A stretch of 64,000 bases of DNA from a virus (Duplodnaviria > Heunggongvirae > Uroviricota > Caudoviricetes), in the IMG/VR virus record IMGVR_UViG_3300031413_000001; one strand, given 5' to 3'. Both the position numbers and the translations under genes were made by a program. The notes under the pieces were generated by a model. The model saw nothing but the letters and a program-made list of their open reading frames with translations, made no database searches and was not told where the DNA came from. Each line of letters starts with the position of its first letter. Position 1 is the stretch's first letter. Below are positions 53,100-64,000 of the stretch, piece after piece.

Positions 53100-54260
53100 A
53101 TGGCAAAGCAGACTATCAATGTTGGAACCACGGCCAACGACGGCACTGGTGACAAGCTGAACTTGGCGTTCAGTAAAGCAAACGCCAACTTCACCGAACT
53201 TTACAGTGGCAAAGAACCTTCCATTTCCTTTGCCCAGCCTGCCCAATACTTTAAGGGTGACAAGACTTGGGGCAACCTGCTTGATGACGAGGACCTTCAG
53301 GACACCCTGGCGCTCAAGGTAAACAAGGGTGGCATCACCAGCAGCGGCTTGACAACCAACAGTGGTATTCTGTTGGGACGCAAGAGCGCCAACACGGGTG
53401 CCATTGAGAACTTGGATCCCCTGGAAGCCAAGACGCTATTGCTGCTCGACAACGTCAGCAACACCAGTGATGCCAACAAGCCAATCAGCACAGCAACCAA
53501 GACTGCACTTGATGCCAAGGAACCAACCGTAACCGGTGGTGGCGTTGGACAGTATTACCGTGGTGACAAGACCTTCCAGGACTTGAACAAGACGGCCGTT
53601 GGTCTGGCACTCGTTGATAACACCAGCGATCTCTCCAAGCCCATCAGCACCCTGGCACAAGCGGCACTGGATGGCAAGGAAGACAAGCTGGTTGCACCAA
53701 CGACTGCGCCAACAACCAAGTTCCTCAATGGAAGCAAGGCTTTCGTCGTAGTGGACAAGACAACGGTTGGTCTCTCCAACGTGGACAATACTGCGGATGC
53801 AGACAAGCCCGTGTTCACTAGCACGACCGCTGGTATCGTACCAAAGAGTGGTGGCGGTACAACCAAGTATCTGAGGGCAGATGGAACTTGGGCAGTGCCC
53901 GGCGGCAGTGGTTCCTCTAGTGTTCAGACCTACGCGGTAAAGTTCTACATGAATGCCGTACCAACCATGGCAGCTAATGCCCGCAGCCGCGCCGATGTGG
54001 TAACAGATGACTTCACGATCGTTGTTGGAAACAGCAAGGCCAAGGTCTTGGTTGCACCGGATGCAGACACCGTGTTCAACATCGCCAAGAACGGTACCAA
54101 TATTGGTACGATCACCTTCTTGGCCGGTGAGACAGTTGGAACTATTGCGGTGCCAACGAGCAGCGATCGAGCACTGGTTCTTGCGGACTACCTTGAGATC
54201 GTAAGCCCCGCGGTACAGGACAGCAAGCTGGATAAGCTGGTAGTCGTACTCCACAACTAA
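53100..54260 (+). CDS. Tail fibre protein with T4 gp9/gp10-like N-terminal motif
   Basis: KQTINVGTTANDGTGD.L..AF.K.N.NF.ELY; three NTS/AD..KP repeats. Confidence 0.75.
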   Translation: MAKQTINVGTTANDGTGDKLNLAFSKANANFTELYSGKEPSISFAQPAQYFKGDKTWGNLLDDEDLQDTLALKVNKGGITSSGLTTNSGILLGRKSANTGAIENLDPLEAKTLLLLDNVSNTSDANKPISTATKTALDAKEPTVTGGGVGQYYRGDKTFQDLNKTAVGLALVDNTSDLSKPISTLAQAALDGKEDKLVAPTTAPTTKFLNGSKAFVVVDKTTVGLSNVDNTADADKPVFTSTTAGIVPKSGGGTTKYLRADGTWAVPGGSGSSSVQTYAVKFYMNAVPTMAANARSRADVVTDDFTIVVGNSKAKVLVAPDADTVFNIAKNGTNIGTITFLAGETVGTIAVPTSSDRALVLADYLEIVSPAVQDSKLDKLVVVLHN

Positions 54261-54710: not shown

Positions 54711-55469
54711 ATGGCAATGAAGTTCACAGGAGCGTTCCGCCCCATTGGAAAGCTGATCAGCCGCGAGGCACCAAGCAAGGTAGTCATCGTACCTCCGCTT
54801 GCCTTTACCTCCACACCAACTATCACTGGCACCAGGATAGGTGATCCATTCAAGGTCAACTGGACTACCAATAGAGTACCCGACACGGTAACTTATGAGT
54901 GGCTGGTTGGTGGAGTAACGGCTAAGTTTGCCCTAAACAAAGACATCTATTACCCCAATGCCACCACCAACCTACAATGCAGAGTAACAGCAACCATTGG
55001 AACCGAGACAGTAAGAGCTATATCGGGTATTAAGAGTGTACTTGTTCAGAGCGGCACCGCTGTCTTCTCTGATGCATTCGAGGGTAATGGTGTGTGGGTG
55101 GTAAACTATGGTGCGGCCAACATTGTTACAAGCCCACTGGCCCTACAGGGATCCAGGATGCTAAGGCTGGATCCGGTAGCATCGGGTAATCCATCGGACA
55201 TAACAACTGGGTACTTCAACGCATTGCCGGGCAGTACCAGCTATAGGGTTAGGGTGTGGGCACGCGCGGAAAGCCAACCCACACAGTTACACCTGCTGGT
55301 CTATACTAACTCGGCCTATGCCGTGAACACCACAATAGATCTCACCACTGAGTGGAAACCTTATGATTTCAATTTTGTTACCGGCAATCAAATGTTTGTT
55401 AGGTTGATCTCTCAGAAGACGAACAGTCCAGCAATGTTTGTTGATCAGGTTTCCGTTAGCCAACTTTGA
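54711..55469 (+). CDS. Virion-associated protein with carbohydrate-binding-like C-terminal domain
   Basis: YRVRVWARA...LTTEWKPY...FVDQVSV. Confidence 0.6.
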   Translation: MAMKFTGAFRPIGKLISREAPSKVVIVPPLAFTSTPTITGTRIGDPFKVNWTTNRVPDTVTYEWLVGGVTAKFALNKDIYYPNATTNLQCRVTATIGTETVRAISGIKSVLVQSGTAVFSDAFEGNGVWVVNYGAANIVTSPLALQGSRMLRLDPVASGNPSDITTGYFNALPGSTSYRVRVWARAESQPTQLHLLVYTNSAYAVNTTIDLTTEWKPYDFNFVTGNQMFVRLISQKTNSPAMFVDQVSVSQL

Positions 55470-56781
55470 TAAACCAAACTGAGTAAATGAAAAGGGTTAA
55501 TGAAAGAATATGATTCTGAAAAACGTGAAGGGCCGAGGGTATAGAATCCCAGAAACTTCATAATCCTCAGATCGCCTTTATCACGCGTATCAAATTTTTG
55601 ACATTCCCTGTAAGGTTTTTTCAAGCAACCTATAGTGCCTCTATAGTGGAGTAATAGTTCTCCCATAGTGCCGCTATAGTGTTGACATGGTGCTTCCATT
55701 GTGGAGGGTCCTGATCCCAGGAGCCCGTGATTTTCCCAAAACTACCCGTGAAATCCGCCGAACAGCCCGTGATTTTGGGCGAGCATGCCTGCGGCTGGGC
55801 GAGCAGTGGAAGGAATTTGCCCGTGAGAGTGGCCCCAAAAGCTGGTCTAGAGTTGAGCAGAGTAGCGCAAAAATTTGAACAGATCGCCCGCAAAACGCCC
55901 GCAGAGTTGGTCTATAGTTGAGTAGAGTTCCCGTATAGTGGAACAAAAGTGCCCGCGAGAACGTGCCCAATAGTGCCTCTATAGTGGAGTAAAGCTGCTC
56001 ATAGAATGCTCACTACCTTAGAAAAACCTCCAACCATGCCCGCGCAAAATGCTAGGCGCGGAGCGCGACTTCAAAGTGGCACTGTACGCTTTTTCATATC
56101 TTTGATCCACCATCAGATAGCCACCCCCATATTACCAATCACAGTAGTGGAAACACCTATAGTAATGCTCTATAGAGAATCCATGAAGTTCCCTATAGCA
56201 TAGACTCTAGTGTAGACTATAGCTGTGACTCATATAGCCAAGACTATAGTAGAAGCCATAGTAGAAGGTACTATAGACAGAGTTCAGACACTATGGATCC
56301 ACTATACACGGACCCTGGACGTCAGGAGTTCACCTAGAGGACGCTCCCAGGAGCGTGGAAAAAGGTGTCAAATCACGTCAAATCTATATGTGCGGCGAAA
56401 GAATTATTATTGATTTAATACCTGTTAACTATGCCAAAACTTGCTCAAAAGTCGCAGATTTGCGTGGCTTTTGACACGCTATAGTGTTCAATAAATGCTC
56501 ATAAAAGCACGGTAATTCAGCTTTATTATGCCATAATAGCCTTTTACTGTGCCTTTCACGTATCGCGCATATCTGTCACCAGAGTTAGCCCAGAGTACAC
56601 CAGAGTGTGCCTCGCTATAGCTATCACTGGAGTTCCTCTATAGTGTGTTCTATAGTGGGAAACCAGAGTTTCCGCTATAGGGAGAGTTTTTCAAAGTCTC
56701 CACTAGGGACAAAATAGTTGAACCCGTGTGTTCTCCTCTATAGGGATAGAGTTGACTCCTCTATAGAGAGTCTCTATAGGG
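55470..56781. repeat. Non-coding repeat-rich region (candidate replication origin / packaging / terminus)
   Basis: Many CTATAG palindromes, 23-bp direct repeat 55632-54/55970-92, CCCGTGA iterons, AT-rich core ~56395-56545, CCAGAGT x3 at 56579-56606. Confidence 0.6.
56752..56780 (+). promoter_or_regulatory. Promoter of first array gene (TTGACT-N17-TATAGG-N7-ATG)
   Basis: Read directly from sequence. Confidence 0.55.
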
Positions 56782-56787
56782 GTGGAT

Positions 56788-57045
56788 ATGACTGCCAGTG
56801 TCTCTATAGAGTATCATGAGGATAGTGAGGATCTGTGTTATCAGACCGTTACCAACCCCTCTAGTGGAAACTTGGTATCGGGTTTTGGTCCTGGGCCCTG
56901 TATGACTCGGTGGTTAGAGGAGCATGGTGGGCGTTATCGCTGCTCCACGGTGTTTGATGCTCAGTATAGTTTCTACCCTGAGGCTCTGGAGATCGAGTTT
57001 CAGGACTCTGCCTGTGCTCTTTTGTTCAAGTTGACTTGGGGTTAA
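56788..57045 (+). CDS. FKLTW-family array gene 1
   Basis: FQDSACALLFKLTWG. Confidence 0.85.
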   Translation: MTASVSIEYHEDSEDLCYQTVTNPSSGNLVSGFGPGPCMTRWLEEHGGRYRCSTVFDAQYSFYPEALEIEFQDSACALLFKLTWG

Positions 57046-57068
57046 CTCTTCCTCTATAGAGAGAAAAC

Positions 57069-57290
57069 ATGGAAGTCCGCATCCCTGTTCAGGCCTACAT
57101 GGTAATCGGCACCTATAGTAGTGAGTTGCTTCCCGACATAGAGGAATGGTTTATCAGAAACCGTTTTCACGAGGGTGTTCACTGGTGGTTTGACTTTGAT
57201 TTCAACAGAATTGGGGTGGATTCCCTTGTCTTTGAGAAGCGGAGGATTGCTCAGCTGTTTCACTTGACGTGGTGTACCTTTCCCCTATAG
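57069..57290 (+). CDS. FKLTW-family array gene 2
   Basis: FEKRRIAQLFHLTW. Confidence 0.85.
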   Translation: MEVRIPVQAYMVIGTYSSELLPDIEEWFIRNRFHEGVHWWFDFDFNRIGVDSLVFEKRRIAQLFHLTWCTFPL

Positions 57291-57299
57291 AGCGGAAAC

Positions 57300-57518
57300 A
57301 TGACTGAGTGGCACAACTTCCCTATAGGGATGGAACTTCACATTGCGGTTCAGAACTGGCTACTGGAGCATGTGGGTGCTCAATCGCTATCCAAGCTGGA
57401 CACCACTGGTGAGTGGTTTTGGCGAGTAAACGTTCGCCCTGAGGAACTGGATGACCGCCTGATAGTCAGCATCCGCGACCCCCAGAAGGCCATGCTGTAC
57501 AAGTTGACTTGGGGCTAA
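57300..57518 (+). CDS. FKLTW-family array gene 3
   Basis: IRDPQKAMLYKLTWG. Confidence 0.85.
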   Translation: MTEWHNFPIGMELHIAVQNWLLEHVGAQSLSKLDTTGEWFWRVNVRPEELDDRLIVSIRDPQKAMLYKLTWG

Positions 57519-57541
57519 CTCTTCCTCTATAGAGAGAAAAG

Positions 57542-57793
57542 ATGACCTATAGTGACACCTTCACAGCCAGCGTTCCTCTTGAGAAGGGGTTCTTCACACC
57601 TGCTCTAAAGGGGTGGTTTGTGGCCAATGGTGTGCCCATTGTTGAAGAGGGTTTTCCCGTCATTGGCGAGGGCCTGGGTTGGGACGCTTGGGTAAGTCAA
57701 CGCCCCGTAGAGGGATTGAATAGCGTTCGCTTTCGCTTCAAAGACAAGGGTATCGCCATGTTGTTCAAGCTCACGTGGCATGATTTCCAGTGA
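57542..57793 (+). CDS. FKLTW-family array gene 4
   Basis: FKDKGIAMLFKLTW. Confidence 0.85.
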   Translation: MTYSDTFTASVPLEKGFFTPALKGWFVANGVPIVEEGFPVIGEGLGWDAWVSQRPVEGLNSVRFRFKDKGIAMLFKLTWHDFQ

Positions 57794-58083
57794 GTGAGAT
57801 AGCGGTGTCCTCGGACTTCTTTGAGATCAGGTCCGATCCCCACTATTATGAACTGGACATGGGTTGTGGTATCCATCGTGGACGCCCCTATGTTCGATTG
57901 TGGGATGACCTCTGCACCATCTATGTTCTGCAGGATCCCATGCATCAGTGGTTGGCGGATCGAGATGTCTTCTATGGAATGGACATTGACATAATCAGCG
58001 GCGATTCCCACGTGGACATTCCTGATCAGCGTGCCGCTATGTTGTTCAAGCTGACTTGGTATGGGGTCATTGATGCGGCGTAG
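57790..58083 (+). CDS. FKLTW-family array gene 5
   Basis: IPDQRAAMLFKLTW. Confidence 0.85.
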   Translation: MSEIAVSSDFFEIRSDPHYYELDMGCGIHRGRPYVRLWDDLCTIYVLQDPMHQWLADRDVFYGMDIDIISGDSHVDIPDQRAAMLFKLTWYGVIDAA

Positions 58084-58312
58084 AAAGTTTAGATACCGTG
58101 TACTGATTCCCTTTGAGTCATACCATGGGGAGAGGAATGGCATCTGGGACTGGCTTGAGGCGACCGTTGGGCGGGTCCTAAGTGAGCAGAATCCCTATGG
58201 TCAGTGGACTGGTGGGTTCTCCAAGGACGAGGTCCTTGGAGTTGAATCCTATGAGTTCACCTTTGAAGATCGGAGAACTGCCATACTGTTCAAGCTACTT
58301 TGGGACCACTGA
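58073..58312 (+). CDS. FKLTW-family array gene 6
   Basis: FEDRRTAILFKLLW. Confidence 0.85.
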   Translation: MRRRKFRYRVLIPFESYHGERNGIWDWLEATVGRVLSEQNPYGQWTGGFSKDEVLGVESYEFTFEDRRTAILFKLLWDH

Positions 58313-58578
58313 TGCACAACGTTCACCTGATAGTCAAAGAAGACCACTACGATCCCTCGGGTCCTGGGGTTGTGTGGTGGAATCTGGCCAGCGACTACAA
58401 TGAGGGCTATCGTGCAACCGATGGCTTTTGGGAGTGGATCAACCAACAAGGCGTTGAGGTCGATGAGTGGGATATCATTCAGGACTACGACGATGGCAAT
58501 GATGTGGTGCCCGGCCAGGTGGTCTTCGCGTTCAAGGATCCCGTGATTGCCCTACTGTTCAAGCTAACTTGGGGATGA
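58312..58578 (+). CDS. FKLTW-family array gene 7
   Basis: FKDPVIALLFKLTWG. Confidence 0.85.
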   Translation: MHNVHLIVKEDHYDPSGPGVVWWNLASDYNEGYRATDGFWEWINQQGVEVDEWDIIQDYDDGNDVVPGQVVFAFKDPVIALLFKLTWG

Positions 58579-58796
58579 GCAGCAGCTATAAGGCTCATCA
58601 TGATCACCACGAGATTTGGATCATGAATGGTGTGAGCAAGATGACGCCAGAGATCCGTGCGTGGCTTGATGAGTTCGCGGGCAAAAAGTGGCTGGGCAGT
58701 ATGGGTGCTGGATCTATGAATGGCAATCGGGTAGGCATGATGCATAACTTTTCCTGCAAGGAAACTGCCATGCTCTTTAAATTGACGTGGGGATAA
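58575..58796 (+). CDS. FKLTW-family array gene 8
   Basis: FSCKETAMLFKLTWG. Confidence 0.85.
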   Translation: MSSSYKAHHDHHEIWIMNGVSKMTPEIRAWLDEFAGKKWLGSMGAGSMNGNRVGMMHNFSCKETAMLFKLTWG

Positions 58797-58817
58797 GTCC
58801 ACTCCTATAGTGAGTCT

Positions 58818-59099
58818 ATGTATGAACTCTCGATCATGCTCCCAGGAGCACTTGGAAATTACAATCGCCGACACACTCCTCTTCCCCGAGGATTGGAGTG
58901 GGGAAAGCCCCGAGGATACCAGATAGTTCCAACTGATGAGCTATGCGAGTGGCTTACTTCTTTTACCCGTAGCCACGCTACCATTGAGTTGCTTCATAGA
59001 AACTCCAGTGTTTGGGAGCCTCACCGAGAAGTCATTGGAGTTTCCTTTGGTTTCCTGGAAGCCTCTGATGCCCTCCTGTTTAAGTTGACCTGGTTATGA
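58818..59099 (+). CDS. FKLTW-family array gene 9
   Basis: FLEASDALLFKLTWL. Confidence 0.85.
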   Translation: MYELSIMLPGALGNYNRRHTPLPRGLEWGKPRGYQIVPTDELCEWLTSFTRSHATIELLHRNSSVWEPHREVIGVSFGFLEASDALLFKLTWL

Positions 59100-59335
59100 T
59101 TGGTGTGGAAGTCAGTAACGATCTGATTAAGATGGCAAAGGATGATCTCCACTACGTTCTAAGGGATGATGTGGTCAATTGGCTGCATGTTCATGCAGGG
59201 ACTGGAGATTGTAGGGGAGGGTGGTCTCCTGATTGCGATTGGCTCTGGACCTACAAGAGCGTGGACTACCGAGGGGCAGCCGTGGTGTTCAGTGATGCCA
59301 AGGCCGCCATGTTGTTCAAGTTGACTTGGGTATAG
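59096..59335 (+). CDS. FKLTW-family array gene 10
   Basis: FSDAKAAMLFKLTWV. Confidence 0.85.
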   Translation: MIGVEVSNDLIKMAKDDLHYVLRDDVVNWLHVHAGTGDCRGGWSPDCDWLWTYKSVDYRGAAVVFSDAKAAMLFKLTWV

Positions 59336-59356
59336 TTCTGCTCTATAGAGGGGAAG

Positions 59357-59617
59357 ATGGCTAGACGGCGTCCTCAAACTTCCTGGCTGGTAAGCATTCC
59401 CAGCAGCATCATGCCAAGTACGTGGGCCAATATGAATGGCGATCTCGATTGGGAGATCGACCTGTGGTTTGAGGAACTGGGTCTTGAGTGGCGACGTGAT
59501 TGGTGGATGGCTATGAACCCCTCCTACCGTCACGACCTGGCATTTCAGGATCGCCGGACTGCCCAACTGATTTTTCTTCTCGTGGAAAGCAGGGCTGATG
59601 AAAATACAAGTTCATGA
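59357..59617 (+). CDS. FKLTW-family array gene 11 (degenerate motif)
   Basis: EIDLWF...FQDRRTAQLIFLL. Confidence 0.7.
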   Translation: MARRRPQTSWLVSIPSSIMPSTWANMNGDLDWEIDLWFEELGLEWRRDWWMAMNPSYRHDLAFQDRRTAQLIFLLVESRADENTSS

Positions 59618-59909
59618 CATTGGTATCCCCTGGTGGCCCTGGAACTACCGCTATCGAGTGACGGCCATTGGAAAGCCCAAGGTGGATGCCCCCGCGTTGG
59701 GCTATGACAACAACCTCTTTGATCTACAGGATAGGCTGGGCTGGGAACCCAACTACGATTATCTTCGTCCAGATATTCGGAACTGGCTCCATGATAGCTT
59801 GAACTACATGGACTGGACCACCGAGCATCCCAATGATGCTGGCGAGGAGTGTGGGATCCTTTTCCGGCGTCGTAAAGACGTGATGATGTTCAAGCTGGCT
59901 TGGGGCTAA
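59598..59909 (+). CDS. FKLTW-family array gene 12
   Basis: FRRRKDVMMFKLAWG. Confidence 0.85.
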   Translation: MKIQVHDIGIPWWPWNYRYRVTAIGKPKVDAPALGYDNNLFDLQDRLGWEPNYDYLRPDIRNWLHDSLNYMDWTTEHPNDAGEECGILFRRRKDVMMFKLAWG

Positions 59910-60187
59910 TGGATATCGTAGCACATCGTCGTGAGTGCGATAGGCTACTAAAAGCCGGTATCAGAGTGGCGATCGCACCCCAGCATATAATCAATGGTTT
60001 CAATCAGATATCTGAAGAACTGATCCAGTGGCTTCTTGAACGTGGTTACACCACTGGTGGCATCACGCCTGATCCATATAGGATCTGGGCAGGAAGCCGA
60101 CCCAATGCTCGAGAGCCCAACGCTGCGGTAATATTTCATCCCAGTCAAGCACAGGATGCACTCTTGTTTAAGTTGACCTGGGGATGA
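59909..60187 (+). CDS. FKLTW-family array gene 13
   Basis: AQDALLFKLTWG. Confidence 0.85.
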   Translation: MDIVAHRRECDRLLKAGIRVAIAPQHIINGFNQISEELIQWLLERGYTTGGITPDPYRIWAGSRPNAREPNAAVIFHPSQAQDALLFKLTWG

Positions 60188-60438
60188 ATAGCGTGGTTCC
60201 TATTCCCGACAGCCTCCTATATAGGGACACTCATCCCTACAGTAGTGGATGGTGGATTCGCCAAGACATCTTTCAGTGGTTGACCACCTTTGTGGGACGT
60301 GGAAATCAAGCTGGTGGTTGGTCCGGGGAGTGTGAGTGGATCTGGGTTTACGCATTCGTTGATGGGCAACCCACCAACAATGCAATATCCTTCCAGGATC
60401 CCAAAGCTGCCATGTTGTTCAAACTCACATGGGCGTAG
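60184..60438 (+). CDS. FKLTW-family array gene 14
   Basis: FQDPKAAMLFKLTWA. Confidence 0.85.
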   Translation: MNSVVPIPDSLLYRDTHPYSSGWWIRQDIFQWLTTFVGRGNQAGGWSGECEWIWVYAFVDGQPTNNAISFQDPKAAMLFKLTWA

Positions 60439-60662
60439 AATACAACATCATACTCAGCGACAAGGTTGCCTATAGGGAACACCACTGTACGGAAAGTCCC
60501 TGGGGAAGTTATCAGATATTCAACCCCGAGATAGCCGAATGGCTAGATGCCCGACTCGCTCCCAACAAGTGGGACCACGACATTGACTTTGACACACAGA
60601 ACTGTATCGTGACCATAGAGGACAAGGATGTGGCACTGTTGTTCAAGTTGACCTGGGTATGA
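60429..60662 (+). CDS. FKLTW-family array gene 15
   Basis: IEDKDVALLFKLTWV. Confidence 0.85.
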   Translation: MGVEYNIILSDKVAYREHHCTESPWGSYQIFNPEIAEWLDARLAPNKWDHDIDFDTQNCIVTIEDKDVALLFKLTWV

Positions 60663-61027
60663 TTGAGTGGACGTTCGTGCAGCTCTATGGCCTCCGGTAT
60701 TTTTCCCGGCAAGGTTTTAGCTCAGCCACTTCACCAGTTCATCGCTGGCGACCTGATGGTCGACCGGCAACCTTTGGCGTCGCCATTGCCGACCATGTGT
60801 TCGAGTGGCTAGATGCCAATTGCAAGGGTAGGTGGTACCACGTAACCAATCGTCAATTCACCACCATTGAACAGATAACTGTTACCCGCGATGATCAGGA
60901 AGAGCTTCGCTTGGCTCGCAAACTCAATCTCGTGACTGATGAGATGCGTGACAAGTTCCGCAGCATCCGCGAGATTGCCTTTGAATTGAAGAGCGACGCG
61001 CTCATGTTCAAGCTGAGTATTGCCTGA
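60659..61027 (+). CDS. FKLTW-family array gene 16
   Basis: FELKSDALMFKLSIA. Confidence 0.8.
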   Translation: MIEWTFVQLYGLRYFSRQGFSSATSPVHRWRPDGRPATFGVAIADHVFEWLDANCKGRWYHVTNRQFTTIEQITVTRDDQEELRLARKLNLVTDEMRDKFRSIREIAFELKSDALMFKLSIA

Positions 61028-61257
61028 TGGGCATTCGTGTTCACTGTGATCTTTCAAAAGCCTGCGAGTGGCTTGAGGCAAGAAATCGACGGGGTGGGTA
61101 TTGGAAAGTTCGCCCCGAAGTTCTTGACTTCATGGATAGTCGAGGGATTCCTTTTCGATCCAATGCCAGCCTCAGTGAGCAGGACTGGTCAGTGGTATTT
61201 CCCGATGAGTTTGCCAGGGATGCCATGTTGTTCAAACTAACGTGGGGTGGAAAGTGA
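61027..61257 (+). CDS. FKLTW-family array gene 17
   Basis: ARDAMLFKLTWGGK. Confidence 0.85.
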   Translation: MGIRVHCDLSKACEWLEARNRRGGYWKVRPEVLDFMDSRGIPFRSNASLSEQDWSVVFPDEFARDAMLFKLTWGGK

Positions 61258-61514
61258 GCGACCTGTGGGGCGACACGCTGAGCAAGAGCATGGAGTGGTA
61301 CAACTCCTGCACGTTTGTCCGCGTTCCAACAACTAGCTTGAATGATGCTCTTTCCTGGTGCGTGGAAAAGAAGGGCCTGAGCGGCCACGATCGACTGTAT
61401 AGTGAGGACAGAGTTGGTTGGGGTTGGACTTCTGGTCCAACCAGCGACGTGTGGGTCTTTTACTTTCAGAACGATCCTGATTTTGCCATGCTGTTCAAAT
61501 TGACTTGGGCGTGA
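61254..61514 (+). CDS. FKLTW-family array gene 18
   Basis: DPDFAMLFKLTWA. Confidence 0.85.
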   Translation: MSDLWGDTLSKSMEWYNSCTFVRVPTTSLNDALSWCVEKKGLSGHDRLYSEDRVGWGWTSGPTSDVWVFYFQNDPDFAMLFKLTWA

Positions 61515-61534
61515 ATACTCTATAGGGAGGATTA

Positions 61535-61834
61535 ATGATCACCTTTCCTCTCACCGACAAACAGATCTACAGCCTGTCTGAGGACACCTCAAATCCTTGG
61601 GTAGCGGTCCTGGATGCGATGAAGACCTGGGCCAAGGAGATGAATCTTCAGTATATCCCCAGTGGATCCACGTTGAAAGAATTGCCTCCTGGGCATTGGT
61701 GTGTGAAAAGCTACAATTACGACCAGAGGCGACGTGAAGGTGGCGGTGGCATCTGGAATCACCGGATGATCTGCTTCAACGATGCGGATGCCAAACACGC
61801 CATGATATTCAAACTTCGTTGGGGCGGGCAGTGA
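61535..61834 (+). CDS. FKLTW-family array gene 19
   Basis: AKHAMIFKLRWGG. Confidence 0.85.
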   Translation: MITFPLTDKQIYSLSEDTSNPWVAVLDAMKTWAKEMNLQYIPSGSTLKELPPGHWCVKSYNYDQRRREGGGGIWNHRMICFNDADAKHAMIFKLRWGGQ

Positions 61835-62115
61835 AGCAGCAAGTCTTTTGGGTTCCCAGCGATATAGACCTCCCAAAGGTAACTGTCGTGACACTCCACG
61901 ATCCCAGTGGTGAGAAGATTGCCGATTCAGTCATGTGGGCAGGAGAGCGCCTGGGACCCAGCAACGGCAACGGTGGGGATATCAGAGGCAAGAACTGGGA
62001 CTTCACCCCTGGATGGCTGGCGCAGTTTGGTAGCAAGGATCTACATTTTTACTTTGGTGACGAAGTGGATCGTGATACCATCGTCTTGTTCAAACTTACA
62101 TTTGGTGGTCGATGA
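61831..62115 (+). CDS. FKLTW-family array gene 20
   Basis: DTIVLFKLTFGG. Confidence 0.8.
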   Translation: MKQQVFWVPSDIDLPKVTVVTLHDPSGEKIADSVMWAGERLGPSNGNGGDIRGKNWDFTPGWLAQFGSKDLHFYFGDEVDRDTIVLFKLTFGGR

Positions 62116-62426
62116 CTAGCGCGACTGTTGAGCTGCCCTGGGAGCGACTGGTTGATTGGGGGATGGGAATCACCCTAAAGCAGGAAGTCCTGGACTGGCT
62201 CCAGGCAAACATTGGCCTGGGTGATAGTCGTTGGTGGAACAGTGTTGTGGAATTGGTCTTTCACCTTGACCACTGCGAGAACGATGGGCCGGGTTGTATC
62301 TCCTCAGGAGAGCAATGCGTGGGTCATGAGGACTGGGGCTGGTCGATCGGTACAAGGAGTGGGAAAGGCTTCTTTGTGTTCCGGGATCCTGCCCACGCGG
62401 TCATGTTCAAGTTGACTTGGGCATGA
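62112..62426 (+). CDS. FKLTW-family array gene 21
   Basis: FRDPAHAVMFKLTWA. Confidence 0.85.
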   Translation: MTSATVELPWERLVDWGMGITLKQEVLDWLQANIGLGDSRWWNSVVELVFHLDHCENDGPGCISSGEQCVGHEDWGWSIGTRSGKGFFVFRDPAHAVMFKLTWA

Positions 62427-62656
62427 GGGAAGTTGAACTATCGCTGGAGCGCCTTCGCGAGATCAACGAAGAGATCAACAAGGTAAAGGCAGTTCAGACC
62501 TATCTGATAGAGTGGTGCGTGGAACATGTCAAGGAACGACCTATCAGCACCATCGTGAGCAAGCCCGCAGTTTATAATAGTGTGGAGTTTAGGGGAATCA
62601 TGTTTGAGTTCCGTGAGCCCCAAAATGCCATGATGTTCAAATTGAGGTGGGCATAA
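62423..62656 (+). CDS. FKLTW-family array gene 22
   Basis: FREPQNAMMFKLRWA. Confidence 0.85.
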   Translation: MREVELSLERLREINEEINKVKAVQTYLIEWCVEHVKERPISTIVSKPAVYNSVEFRGIMFEFREPQNAMMFKLRWA

Positions 62657-62892
62657 TGCCCTTGATGTCAGTGGTCATGCAAACTCATCCCGTAATCGTC
62701 AGTATGCCCATGGATCAGAGCGACGATCACTGGATTGAAATAGATGATTGGATCTCCAGCAAAAACCTTGATGTCATTTGGAGTTCCAACGTGGACACCT
62801 CGGGTATCGCACCATTTCCATTCCTGCGCCACTTCTGTTTTAAGACGGAAGACCGGGAGGCAGCCATGCTGTTCAAACTTACATGGCTATAA
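62656..62892 (+). CDS. FKLTW-family array gene 23
   Basis: EDREAAMLFKLTWL. Confidence 0.85.
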   Translation: MPLMSVVMQTHPVIVSMPMDQSDDHWIEIDDWISSKNLDVIWSSNVDTSGIAPFPFLRHFCFKTEDREAAMLFKLTWL

Positions 62893-63101
62893 CTGTGGAA
62901 ATCTCCGATCGCGGAGATTGGAATACCGTCTATAGGGAAGCATCCAATTGGATGGTGGACCACTTTCCAGATCTTTGCCTTCCAGTCACAGATCCCAAGC
63001 GGGTCTATAATGGTTGGGACGTGTCTTTTGGTCTTGACACCATACAGTTCTATTTTGAAGATCCTCAGGTTGCTATGTTGTTCAAGTTGACTTTTGCCTA
63101 A
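62883..63101 (+). CDS. FKLTW-family array gene 24
   Basis: FEDPQVAMLFKLTFA. Confidence 0.85.
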   Translation: MAITVEISDRGDWNTVYREASNWMVDHFPDLCLPVTDPKRVYNGWDVSFGLDTIQFYFEDPQVAMLFKLTFA

Positions 63102-63121
63102 CCTGGCTTTACGATACAGGT

Positions 63122-63430
63122 ATGGAAACGCACCACTCCTGGAAATCCTTTATCGCCCAGGGGCGAGCATGGCGTGCCGTGGCCGAGTGGTCCAGTGAGT
63201 TCTTTGATCGAATTGAAGACGAGCAATATGACGACTATGATGTCTATCCCCTGAGGGAAGATGTCAGAGCATGGTTGGATAAGTTGCCTCGTGGTCGATG
63301 GTGGGTTGAAAGTCCCGATGGCACTGGTCTCATAGACATCACGGGCCCACGATGGATGCGTCCCATCTACTTTCGTTTTCGTCGAGACCTAATGCTGTTC
63401 AAGTTGAGGTGGGACCATGGTGCGAAATAA
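63122..63430 (+). CDS. FKLTW-family array gene 25
   Basis: FRFRRDLMLFKLRW. Confidence 0.85.
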   Translation: METHHSWKSFIAQGRAWRAVAEWSSEFFDRIEDEQYDDYDVYPLREDVRAWLDKLPRGRWWVESPDGTGLIDITGPRWMRPIYFRFRRDLMLFKLRWDHGAK

Positions 63431-63641
63431 AGACTTTCCCAACAAGGTAACCATCCGGCTTCACCGCTTGGAGTTTCAGGCTCTTCTAGCTTGGCTTCAT
63501 GCAGCTGGGCATGAGTTGCGCGTCACGATGAAGTTTGGTGACAACCAGCACAAGAGCGCGGATCCTGACCACCTTCAGCAGGACATCTTGTTCAAAGATC
63601 GAAAGGACGCCATGTTGTTCAAGCTGGCGTGGTATCGATGA
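63417..63641 (+). CDS. FKLTW-family array gene 26
   Basis: FKDRKDAMLFKLAW. Confidence 0.85.
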   Translation: MVRNKDFPNKVTIRLHRLEFQALLAWLHAAGHELRVTMKFGDNQHKSADPDHLQQDILFKDRKDAMLFKLAWYR

Positions 63642-63901
63642 TTCAGTTCATTATCAAAGATTACCACGTGTGGGGAAACCGCAACGAGGAACTCGCACCA
63701 CCACGTCTCCCCTATGAGGTCCAGGATTGGCTCAACGATAGCGGGATCACGGAGTATGGATTGGAGTGGAAGCACAATGAAAAGGCTTCCCTGGGAAAGC
63801 ACCAAAAGGCACAGGTGTTTGAGACCCACATCCTCTTTTACAAGAACAGCGATGGTATGATTTTCAAGCTTCGATGGTACCACCACATACAAAATGCTTG
63901 A
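63638..63901 (+). CDS. FKLTW-family array gene 27
   Basis: FYKNSDGMIFKLRW. Confidence 0.8.
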   Translation: MIQFIIKDYHVWGNRNEELAPPRLPYEVQDWLNDSGITEYGLEWKHNEKASLGKHQKAQVFETHILFYKNSDGMIFKLRWYHHIQNA

Positions 63902-64000
63902 GCACAATGGGCACAACCTTTACTCTACCACACAAAATTGACAGTATAACCAGGGATGGCTGGCTTTGGTACAGCCATGATCATTTTAATCCGCCGACTG

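Follow-up and report, generated by a model that had tools for sequence, protein, structure and literature searches.

Why should 41 bp of DNA be almost unchanged between two gene junctions when the genes around them are dissimilar? The question is raised by a tandem gene array in a 64,000-nt stretch of viral DNA, the whole of which was analysed and is called the window here. The array (56782..63901, + strand, continuing beyond the window end) comprises 27 small paralogous genes, or units, of 72–122 aa. Nearly all of their proteins end in (A)(M/L)LFKLTW followed by 0–7 residues, and in an alignment they share an N-terminal xxWLxxx helix and a C-terminal helix. A family HMM matches 26 of the 27 units at E ≤ 1e-3, and unit 11 (59357–59617) carries a degenerate motif. 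Pooled pN/pS values are 0.16 for 24 units against G001, the closest relative compared (416,714 bp, 90% complete, ~90% identity to the window), and 0.10 for 12 units against a second relative, L013, indicating that the units are working genes under purifying selection. This LFKLTW family has two further members well away from the main array (179–734, – strand), and in G001 the family is scattered over many clusters on both strands. Inside unit 12 (59700–59748) the window has 47 nt where G001 and contigs of three sequencing runs have 92 nt, an in-frame length change that gives a protein of 118 aa in G001 and the contigs and of 103 aa in the window.

Junction 1 (57027..57067, + strand), extending from the end of unit 1 almost to the ATG of unit 2 at 57069, and junction 3 (57500..57540, + strand), extending from the end of unit 3 almost to the ATG of unit 4 at 57542, are identical at 40 of 41 positions, the sole difference being a Gly codon (GGT vs GGC), and the match widens to 46/49 over 57023–57071 and 57496–57544. 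Each copy reads AAG TTG ACT TGG GGN TAA, CTCTTCCT, CTATAG, AGAGAAAA(C/G) and ATG, i.e., the K-L-T-W-G codons and a stop, an 18-nt spacer, the CTATAG box, and 9 nt to the next start codon; in junction 1, GTTGAC occupies 57030–57035 and CTATAG 57054–57059, followed by a purine run. When all 27 gene ends of the array are compared in the same register (351 pairs), this pair is an outlier (40/41, against a mean of 16.6, a standard deviation of 4.0 and a runner-up of 28), which shows that the similarity is real and far above what the shared protein motif alone gives. A by-product of C-terminal motif conservation, combined with chance in a short spacer, could account for the 13 of 41 bases that are conserved codons and are exactly common to seven pairs. 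It fails in the 28 nt past the Trp codon, where the pair matches at 27 positions and the best of the 350 other pairs at 18, and it leaves aside a junction 3 spacer that is identical in the window, G001 and L013. With the outlier position in the 351-pair comparison, this explanation is already refuted, and we give it next to no credence. Both junctions are also found in G001 and L013, two independently assembled relatives, which excludes an assembly artefact. Outside the repeat, genes 1 and 3 share 18 of 57 aligned residues, and no local alignment was obtained between genes 2 and 4. The 40/41 repeat and the dissimilarity of the genes that carry it, as described in an earlier sequence-only reading of this locus, are both borne out. 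The explanation that we favour, with moderate confidence in all of its parts taken jointly, is that the repeat represents two copies of one composite gene junction, that this junction carries a promoter, that the copying is old, and that the junctions are where the array turns over.

Read as DNA, junctions 1 and 3 have the form GTTGAC-N18-CTATAG, which is near the sigma-70 consensus of Sinorhizobium meliloti, CTTGAC-N17-CTATAT (PMC2873474). The 64-kb window contains seven instances of TTGAC-N15-19-CTATAG where 0.04 would be expected, and none of 100 shuffles reaches seven. All seven sites are on the + strand and precede units 1, 2, 3, 4, 9, 11 and 19, with the box 7–9 nt from the ATG in every case and spacers of 15–18 nt; six of the seven have a –35 score of 5–6 of 6 with a spacer of 16–18 nt. 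Besides junctions 1 and 3, they comprise the site preceding unit 1 (56752..56790, + strand; TTGAC-N17-CTATAG-N8-ATG), junction 2 (57255..57299, + strand; CTTGAC-N16-CTATAG, the TAG being the stop of unit 2 and the ATG of unit 3 following after 9 nt), junction 8 preceding unit 9 (58782..58820, + strand; TTGACG-N18-CTATAG), junction 10 preceding unit 11 (59321..59359, + strand; TTGAC-N17-CTATAG-N8-ATG) and junction 18 preceding unit 19 (61500..61537, + strand; TTGAC-N15-CTATAG-N9-ATG). The TTGAC preceding unit 1 lies in non-coding DNA, so the protein motif alone does not account for the pairing of TTGAC with the box. There are seven intergenic gaps in the array and CTATAG is present in six of them, the exception being junction 24 (63087..63124, + strand), which reads TTGACT-N17-TACGAT, the ATG of unit 25 following after 6 nt; the remaining genes overlap one another, mostly as ATGA or TAATG. 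All six gene ends that bear a box spell Leu-Thr as TTGAC, which only 5 of the 21 others do (Fisher P = 0.0016). In another relative, G002, a gap junction of a distant array reads TTGACA-N17-CTATAG-N8-ATG. Judged by a tail-region protein, whose only matches are in Sinorhizobium phage Phosso and Agrobacterium phage Atu_ph07 (25–29% identity), the nearest cultured relatives infect Sinorhizobium and Agrobacterium.

Taken as a whole, the layout suggests that the junction would act as a near-consensus alphaproteobacterial sigma-70 promoter of host type serving the next gene, with its –35 element written in the Leu-Thr codons of the gene upstream and the mRNA of the next gene predicted to start on its ATG or immediately ahead of it. 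The two copies may then have stayed nearly unchanged under joint selection on protein motif and promoter. The sites preceding the seven array genes resemble rhizobial sigma-70 promoters in their –35-like GTTGAC, CTTGAC or ATTGAC, their 15–18-nt spacer and their –10-like CTATAG (5 of 6 bases); they differ in that the –35 sits inside the last codons of the upstream gene, that the –10 ends in G in place of the final T of the consensus, and that the ATG follows 7–9 nt after the box. Against a promoter also stand spacers that range over 15–18 nt instead of a fixed 17, a gap of 8–9 nt from –10 to ATG that is long for a strictly leaderless start, and the local confinement of the boxes, which is odd for a general host-type –10 element. 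A generic E. coli-type scan of the sequence finds no enrichment of promoters (11 vs 9.7) or terminators (6 vs 7.8). A T7-type promoter was considered for CTATAGGGAGA, which resembles positions –6 to +6 of the T7 promoter, and was dropped in favour of the host-type reading; PF00940 has no match in G001, but its positive control matched nowhere.

The main rival is an operator role for the CTATAG box, which could stand alone or overlap the –10 and could coexist with a promoter. On this account a dimeric phage or host regulator binds TTCCTCTATAGAGAGAA, the junction is conserved for that reason, and TTGAC is incidental. The box with its flanks does form the near-palindrome TTCCTCTATAGAGAGAA, as operators do, and its distribution is narrow, with 32 of 35 boxes of the window within 55241–62930 and 29 of 35 strand-counted YCTATAGNG matches of G001 within 205.8–213.7 kb, i.e., confined to ~8 kb of a genome of >400 kb. 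Upstream of the array, a CTATAG-rich non-coding stretch of ~1.3 kb (55470..56751, no strand assigned) holds 17 boxes in 55600–56740, and these lack a –35-like hexamer (1/17 reach at least 4/6, against a background of 13%), so that the box has, or also has, another role. The stretch has a mean column identity of 94% among the three genomes, with long runs at 99–100%; its possible roles include a binding array, an origin and a non-coding RNA, and it has no Rfam match. An operator, even so, leaves unexplained the 15–18-nt distance to TTGAC and the 7–9-nt distance to ATG in all seven sites, the preference for TTGAC over synonymous spellings at gene ends with a box (P = 0.0016) and the match to the rhizobial consensus (PMC2873474). 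As the principal role of the box we consider it rather unlikely.

Several other features of this region were observed. Some boxes of the non-coding stretch stand in an 11-nt register (55629–55704), and each of units 1–4 has a second CTATAG box 5–44 nt inside its coding region (56804, 57113, 57322 and 57547); both would suit an operator. The stretch is more conserved than its flanking genes, the neighbouring protein being only 67% identical in L013. An apparent lower conservation of the boxes than of the surrounding non-coding DNA was discarded, since the alignment traces it to a replaced stretch just upstream of gene 1. Further upstream lies a 386-aa ORF (53100–54260) with repeated ...NTSD..KPIS... 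motifs, typical of tail-fibre-like proteins, and L013 has a 1.3-kb insertion directly downstream of it.

Turnover of the units was followed by comparing the window with G001, L013 and Logan contigs of four further runs (X3–X6). Unit 1 has a different gene body in L013, and short-flank joints suggest the same in X3–X5. The unit 8 cassette (58548..58765, + strand, 218 nt) is absent from L013, from X3, X4 and X6 (255-nt flanks) and from X5 (short flank), and G001 has ~920 bp in its place. That insert (L009 15457–15936, – strand) encodes a 159-aa ORF without the family C-terminal motif together with a 114-aa family member, and has a copy of one gene-end sequence on either side. The unit 10 cassette (59076..59311, + strand, 236 nt) is absent from G001 and the X4 contig, unit 13 (278 nt) from G001, and the unit 14 cassette (60157..60407, + strand, 251 nt) from L013 and the contigs of X3 and X6. 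In X3, unit 22 is replaced, with 246 nt skipped and 16 nt instead, and 138 nt are skipped in a further change inside unit 24, possibly a variable unit as well. Among the joints listed, those with 236–255-nt flanks include 58547>58766 (X3, X4 and X6), 59075>59312 (X4), 60156>60408 (X3 and X6) and 62389>62636 (X3). Joints with 25–32-nt flanks (56723>57520, 56723>57047, 59327>62087, 59912>60188 and others) were left out of the count of events, since Logan contigs come from mixed populations and short-flank joints are unreliable; the first two reflect an alternative gene 1 cassette behind a junction-3-like module, as in L013.

The breakpoints of these changes fall at the gene ends. The indels of 236 and 278 nt are exactly one motif-to-motif unit, the BLAST alignments flanking unit-length indels overlap by 26–32 nt in the motif, and loose contig ends cluster at motif edges (58578, 59287–59295, 59903–59905, 60398–60433, 62087, 63060 and 63626). 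Chimeric ends are found where units are missing: unit 7 of L013 has the tail of unit 8, its unit 13 has the tail of unit 14, and unit 9 of G001 has the tail and stop of unit 10; in G001, moreover, unit 12 runs directly into unit 14, the joint following the stop. Of the four mapped switches, two are at the 5' edge of the motif, one is inside it (patchy) and one is just 3' of the stop, and every recombinant keeps the downstream box where one existed. Divergence from G001 varies from 1.3% to 24% per unit (chi-square 211, df 20, P = 6e-34), in blocks that are in register with the units, sharpest with motif boundaries and fading when shifted by at least 40 nt. On this comparison of genomes, the junctions are the places where units are gained, lost and replaced, and the proposal that the junction is the shuffling site is upheld in G001, L013 and X3–X6, the breakpoints falling within the conserved gene end or next to it. 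The palindrome itself gains no support as the crossover site, none of the four mapped crossovers being in CTCTATAGAG. None of the joints listed (15 of 18) connects 57027 to 57500.

How old, then, is the near-identity of junctions 1 and 3? The sequence-only reading attributed it to recent recombination or gene conversion, and this stands in one part, in that one junction was evidently copied from the other: the 27/28 identity after the Trp codon includes positions that vary elsewhere. The copying is not recent. The same T/C difference (GGT/GGC) separates the two junctions in the window, in G001 and in L013, so that it predates the split of the three genomes (dS ~0.2), and no homogenisation has occurred since. 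Both copies would have come from one module, copied ectopically before that split. The surroundings of junction 1 have changed: precisely there, divergence from G001 falls abruptly, unit 1 standing at 19.8% and unit 2 at 1.3%, which makes the junction a mosaic boundary, and in L013 the gene 1 body is replaced (no blastn match for 56759–57015) and the junction 1 spacer differs (GTTCTCC for CTCTTCC).

A fuller version of the recent-conversion account holds that junctions 1 and 3 were homogenised while the array grew in a polarised manner from its CTATAG-rich end via a dedicated site, in the way of an integron or a CRISPR array. The 27/28 identity, which covers spacer positions variable in the other box-bearing junctions, would fit it, as would the proximal position of the three most similar junctions (1, 2 and 3) and the fact that gene 1 is the most replaced unit. 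The single difference shared with G001 and L013, older than their split, largely refutes it, and other observations point the same way. The variable units (1, 8, 10, 13, 14, 22 and possibly 24) are spread along the array over positions 1–24, which speaks against polarised growth; the palindrome is present at only 6 of 26 internal junctions; and the units are protein genes under purifying selection. A dedicated recombinase, too, finds no support in the close relative G001, which has neither an integrase nor a resolvase: PF00589 (tyrosine recombinase) has no match there, with its control matched in 14/14 genomes, and neither has PF00239 (serine recombinase), with positive controls matching. We regard recent conversion with polarised growth as very unlikely.

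The unit changes would more likely result from general homology- or microhomology-guided recombination than from a site-specific system, with selection keeping those products that are in frame and preserve the promoter. G001 has one RecA-like match (52 bits). In two of the four crossovers the flanking copies of the window share only 3–4 identical bases at the switch point, although these copies may differ from the true parents, and selection alone could place the surviving breakpoints at domain edges.

The family to which the units belong is very large. Its profile has 2,964 matching representatives of 50%-identity clusters at E ≤ 0.001, and matches number 87 in G001, 74 in G002, 67 in G003 and 48 in the cultured Sinorhizobium phage Phosso, i.e., 48–87 copies per genome in four related phages of ~420–470 kb each, against 0 in Atu_ph07; arrays of 2–18 members are found in 8-kb loci of other viral contigs. 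The source genome is probably a jumbo phage of ~460 kb. The top profile match (P0121, 4,529 aa) covers profile positions 20–55 only and is probably a repeat or compositional match. The median pI of the units is 5.5, with 16 of 27 acidic, so that their charge is uninformative. For unit 14, a model obtained with AlphaFold from 91 aligned sequences reaches a pLDDT of 94 with a beta-beta-beta-alpha-beta-beta-alpha topology. With this model, Foldseek against the PDB gives nothing at E ≤ 0.001, a wide fold search (VIA) gives at best Z 4.6 to RRM- and ACT-like chains, below a meaningful level, a fold search of BFVD gives uncharacterised phage proteins only (E ≥ 0.012), and an Atlas search gives unnamed viral clusters only. 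At the sequence level, ten units searched against Pfam have no match above cut-off, and all 27 searched against PHROGs yield one weak match, to an unnamed family (E = 0.008). At the nucleotide level the array has no match among 50,697 phage records, whether searched in near or in distant mode; tblastn of one unit and Rfam over 55000–64000 (E ≤ 0.1) return no match either. The literature search, which included PMC11242549 (no occurrence of 'paralog'), found no account of the LFKLTW family or array and no mention of Phosso among the papers listed.

A wider reading, which we offer tentatively and as rather unlikely, is that the LFKLTW family forms a recombinase-free cassette system of jumbo phages, in which the conserved gene end serves at once as the last helix of one protein, the –35 element of the next gene and a patch of homology. 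If so, any unit could be dropped in, lost or swapped with the downstream gene still expressed, and the phages would keep 50–90 fast-turnover small proteins, plausibly host-takeover or anti-defence factors. The locus matters in several respects apart from this. It presents a very large small-protein family, unnamed in all libraries searched, and direct comparative evidence of array turnover, in which entire genes are gained and lost at a short conserved gene end that is probably a promoter as well. Should the junction indeed act as a promoter, it would also be a clear example of codons under double constraint, from the protein and from transcription signals. Since a cultured relative, Phosso, exists, the promoter and the function of the family are testable at the bench. 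The junction, as judged from these sequences, is a conserved and probably promoter-bearing element whose near-identical pair is old, and nothing supports a polarised mechanism of integron or CRISPR type.

Set beside known systems, the array has partial counterparts. Like the polyimmunity arrays (SUKH and similar; cf. PMC3113570), which viruses have as well, it consists of tandem small diverged paralogues; unlike them, its units have no sequence or fold match to those families, the sole hint of immunity proteins being a sub-threshold match to Imm6 (E = 0.11, 12.7 bits vs a cut-off of 25). With integron cassettes it shares a row of small single-gene units of variable presence with boundaries at a recurring sequence. 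It differs from them in the lack of an IntI-type recombinase in the relative G001, of polarity in the array and of an attC-like site at most junctions (the palindrome being at 6/26 internal ones), and in units that carry or share putative promoters. Compared with CRISPR arrays, its intervals are 209–365-nt protein genes with pN/pS of 0.10–0.16, and its repeats average 16.6/41 identity instead of being near-identical. Poxvirus 'gene accordions' are tandem arrays of paralogues whose copy number shifts through unequal recombination. The LFKLTW units differ from these in being old and diverged (~25–30% identity) instead of fresh identical copies, in a shared segment of only ~20–45 nt, and in the replacement of units by unrelated cassettes, which also occurs. 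They resemble them in being same-strand tandem paralogues with unit-length gains and losses between close relatives and breakpoints in a shared segment, and the indels of 236, 278, 218 and 251 nt together with the chimeric gene ends are what unequal recombination would produce.
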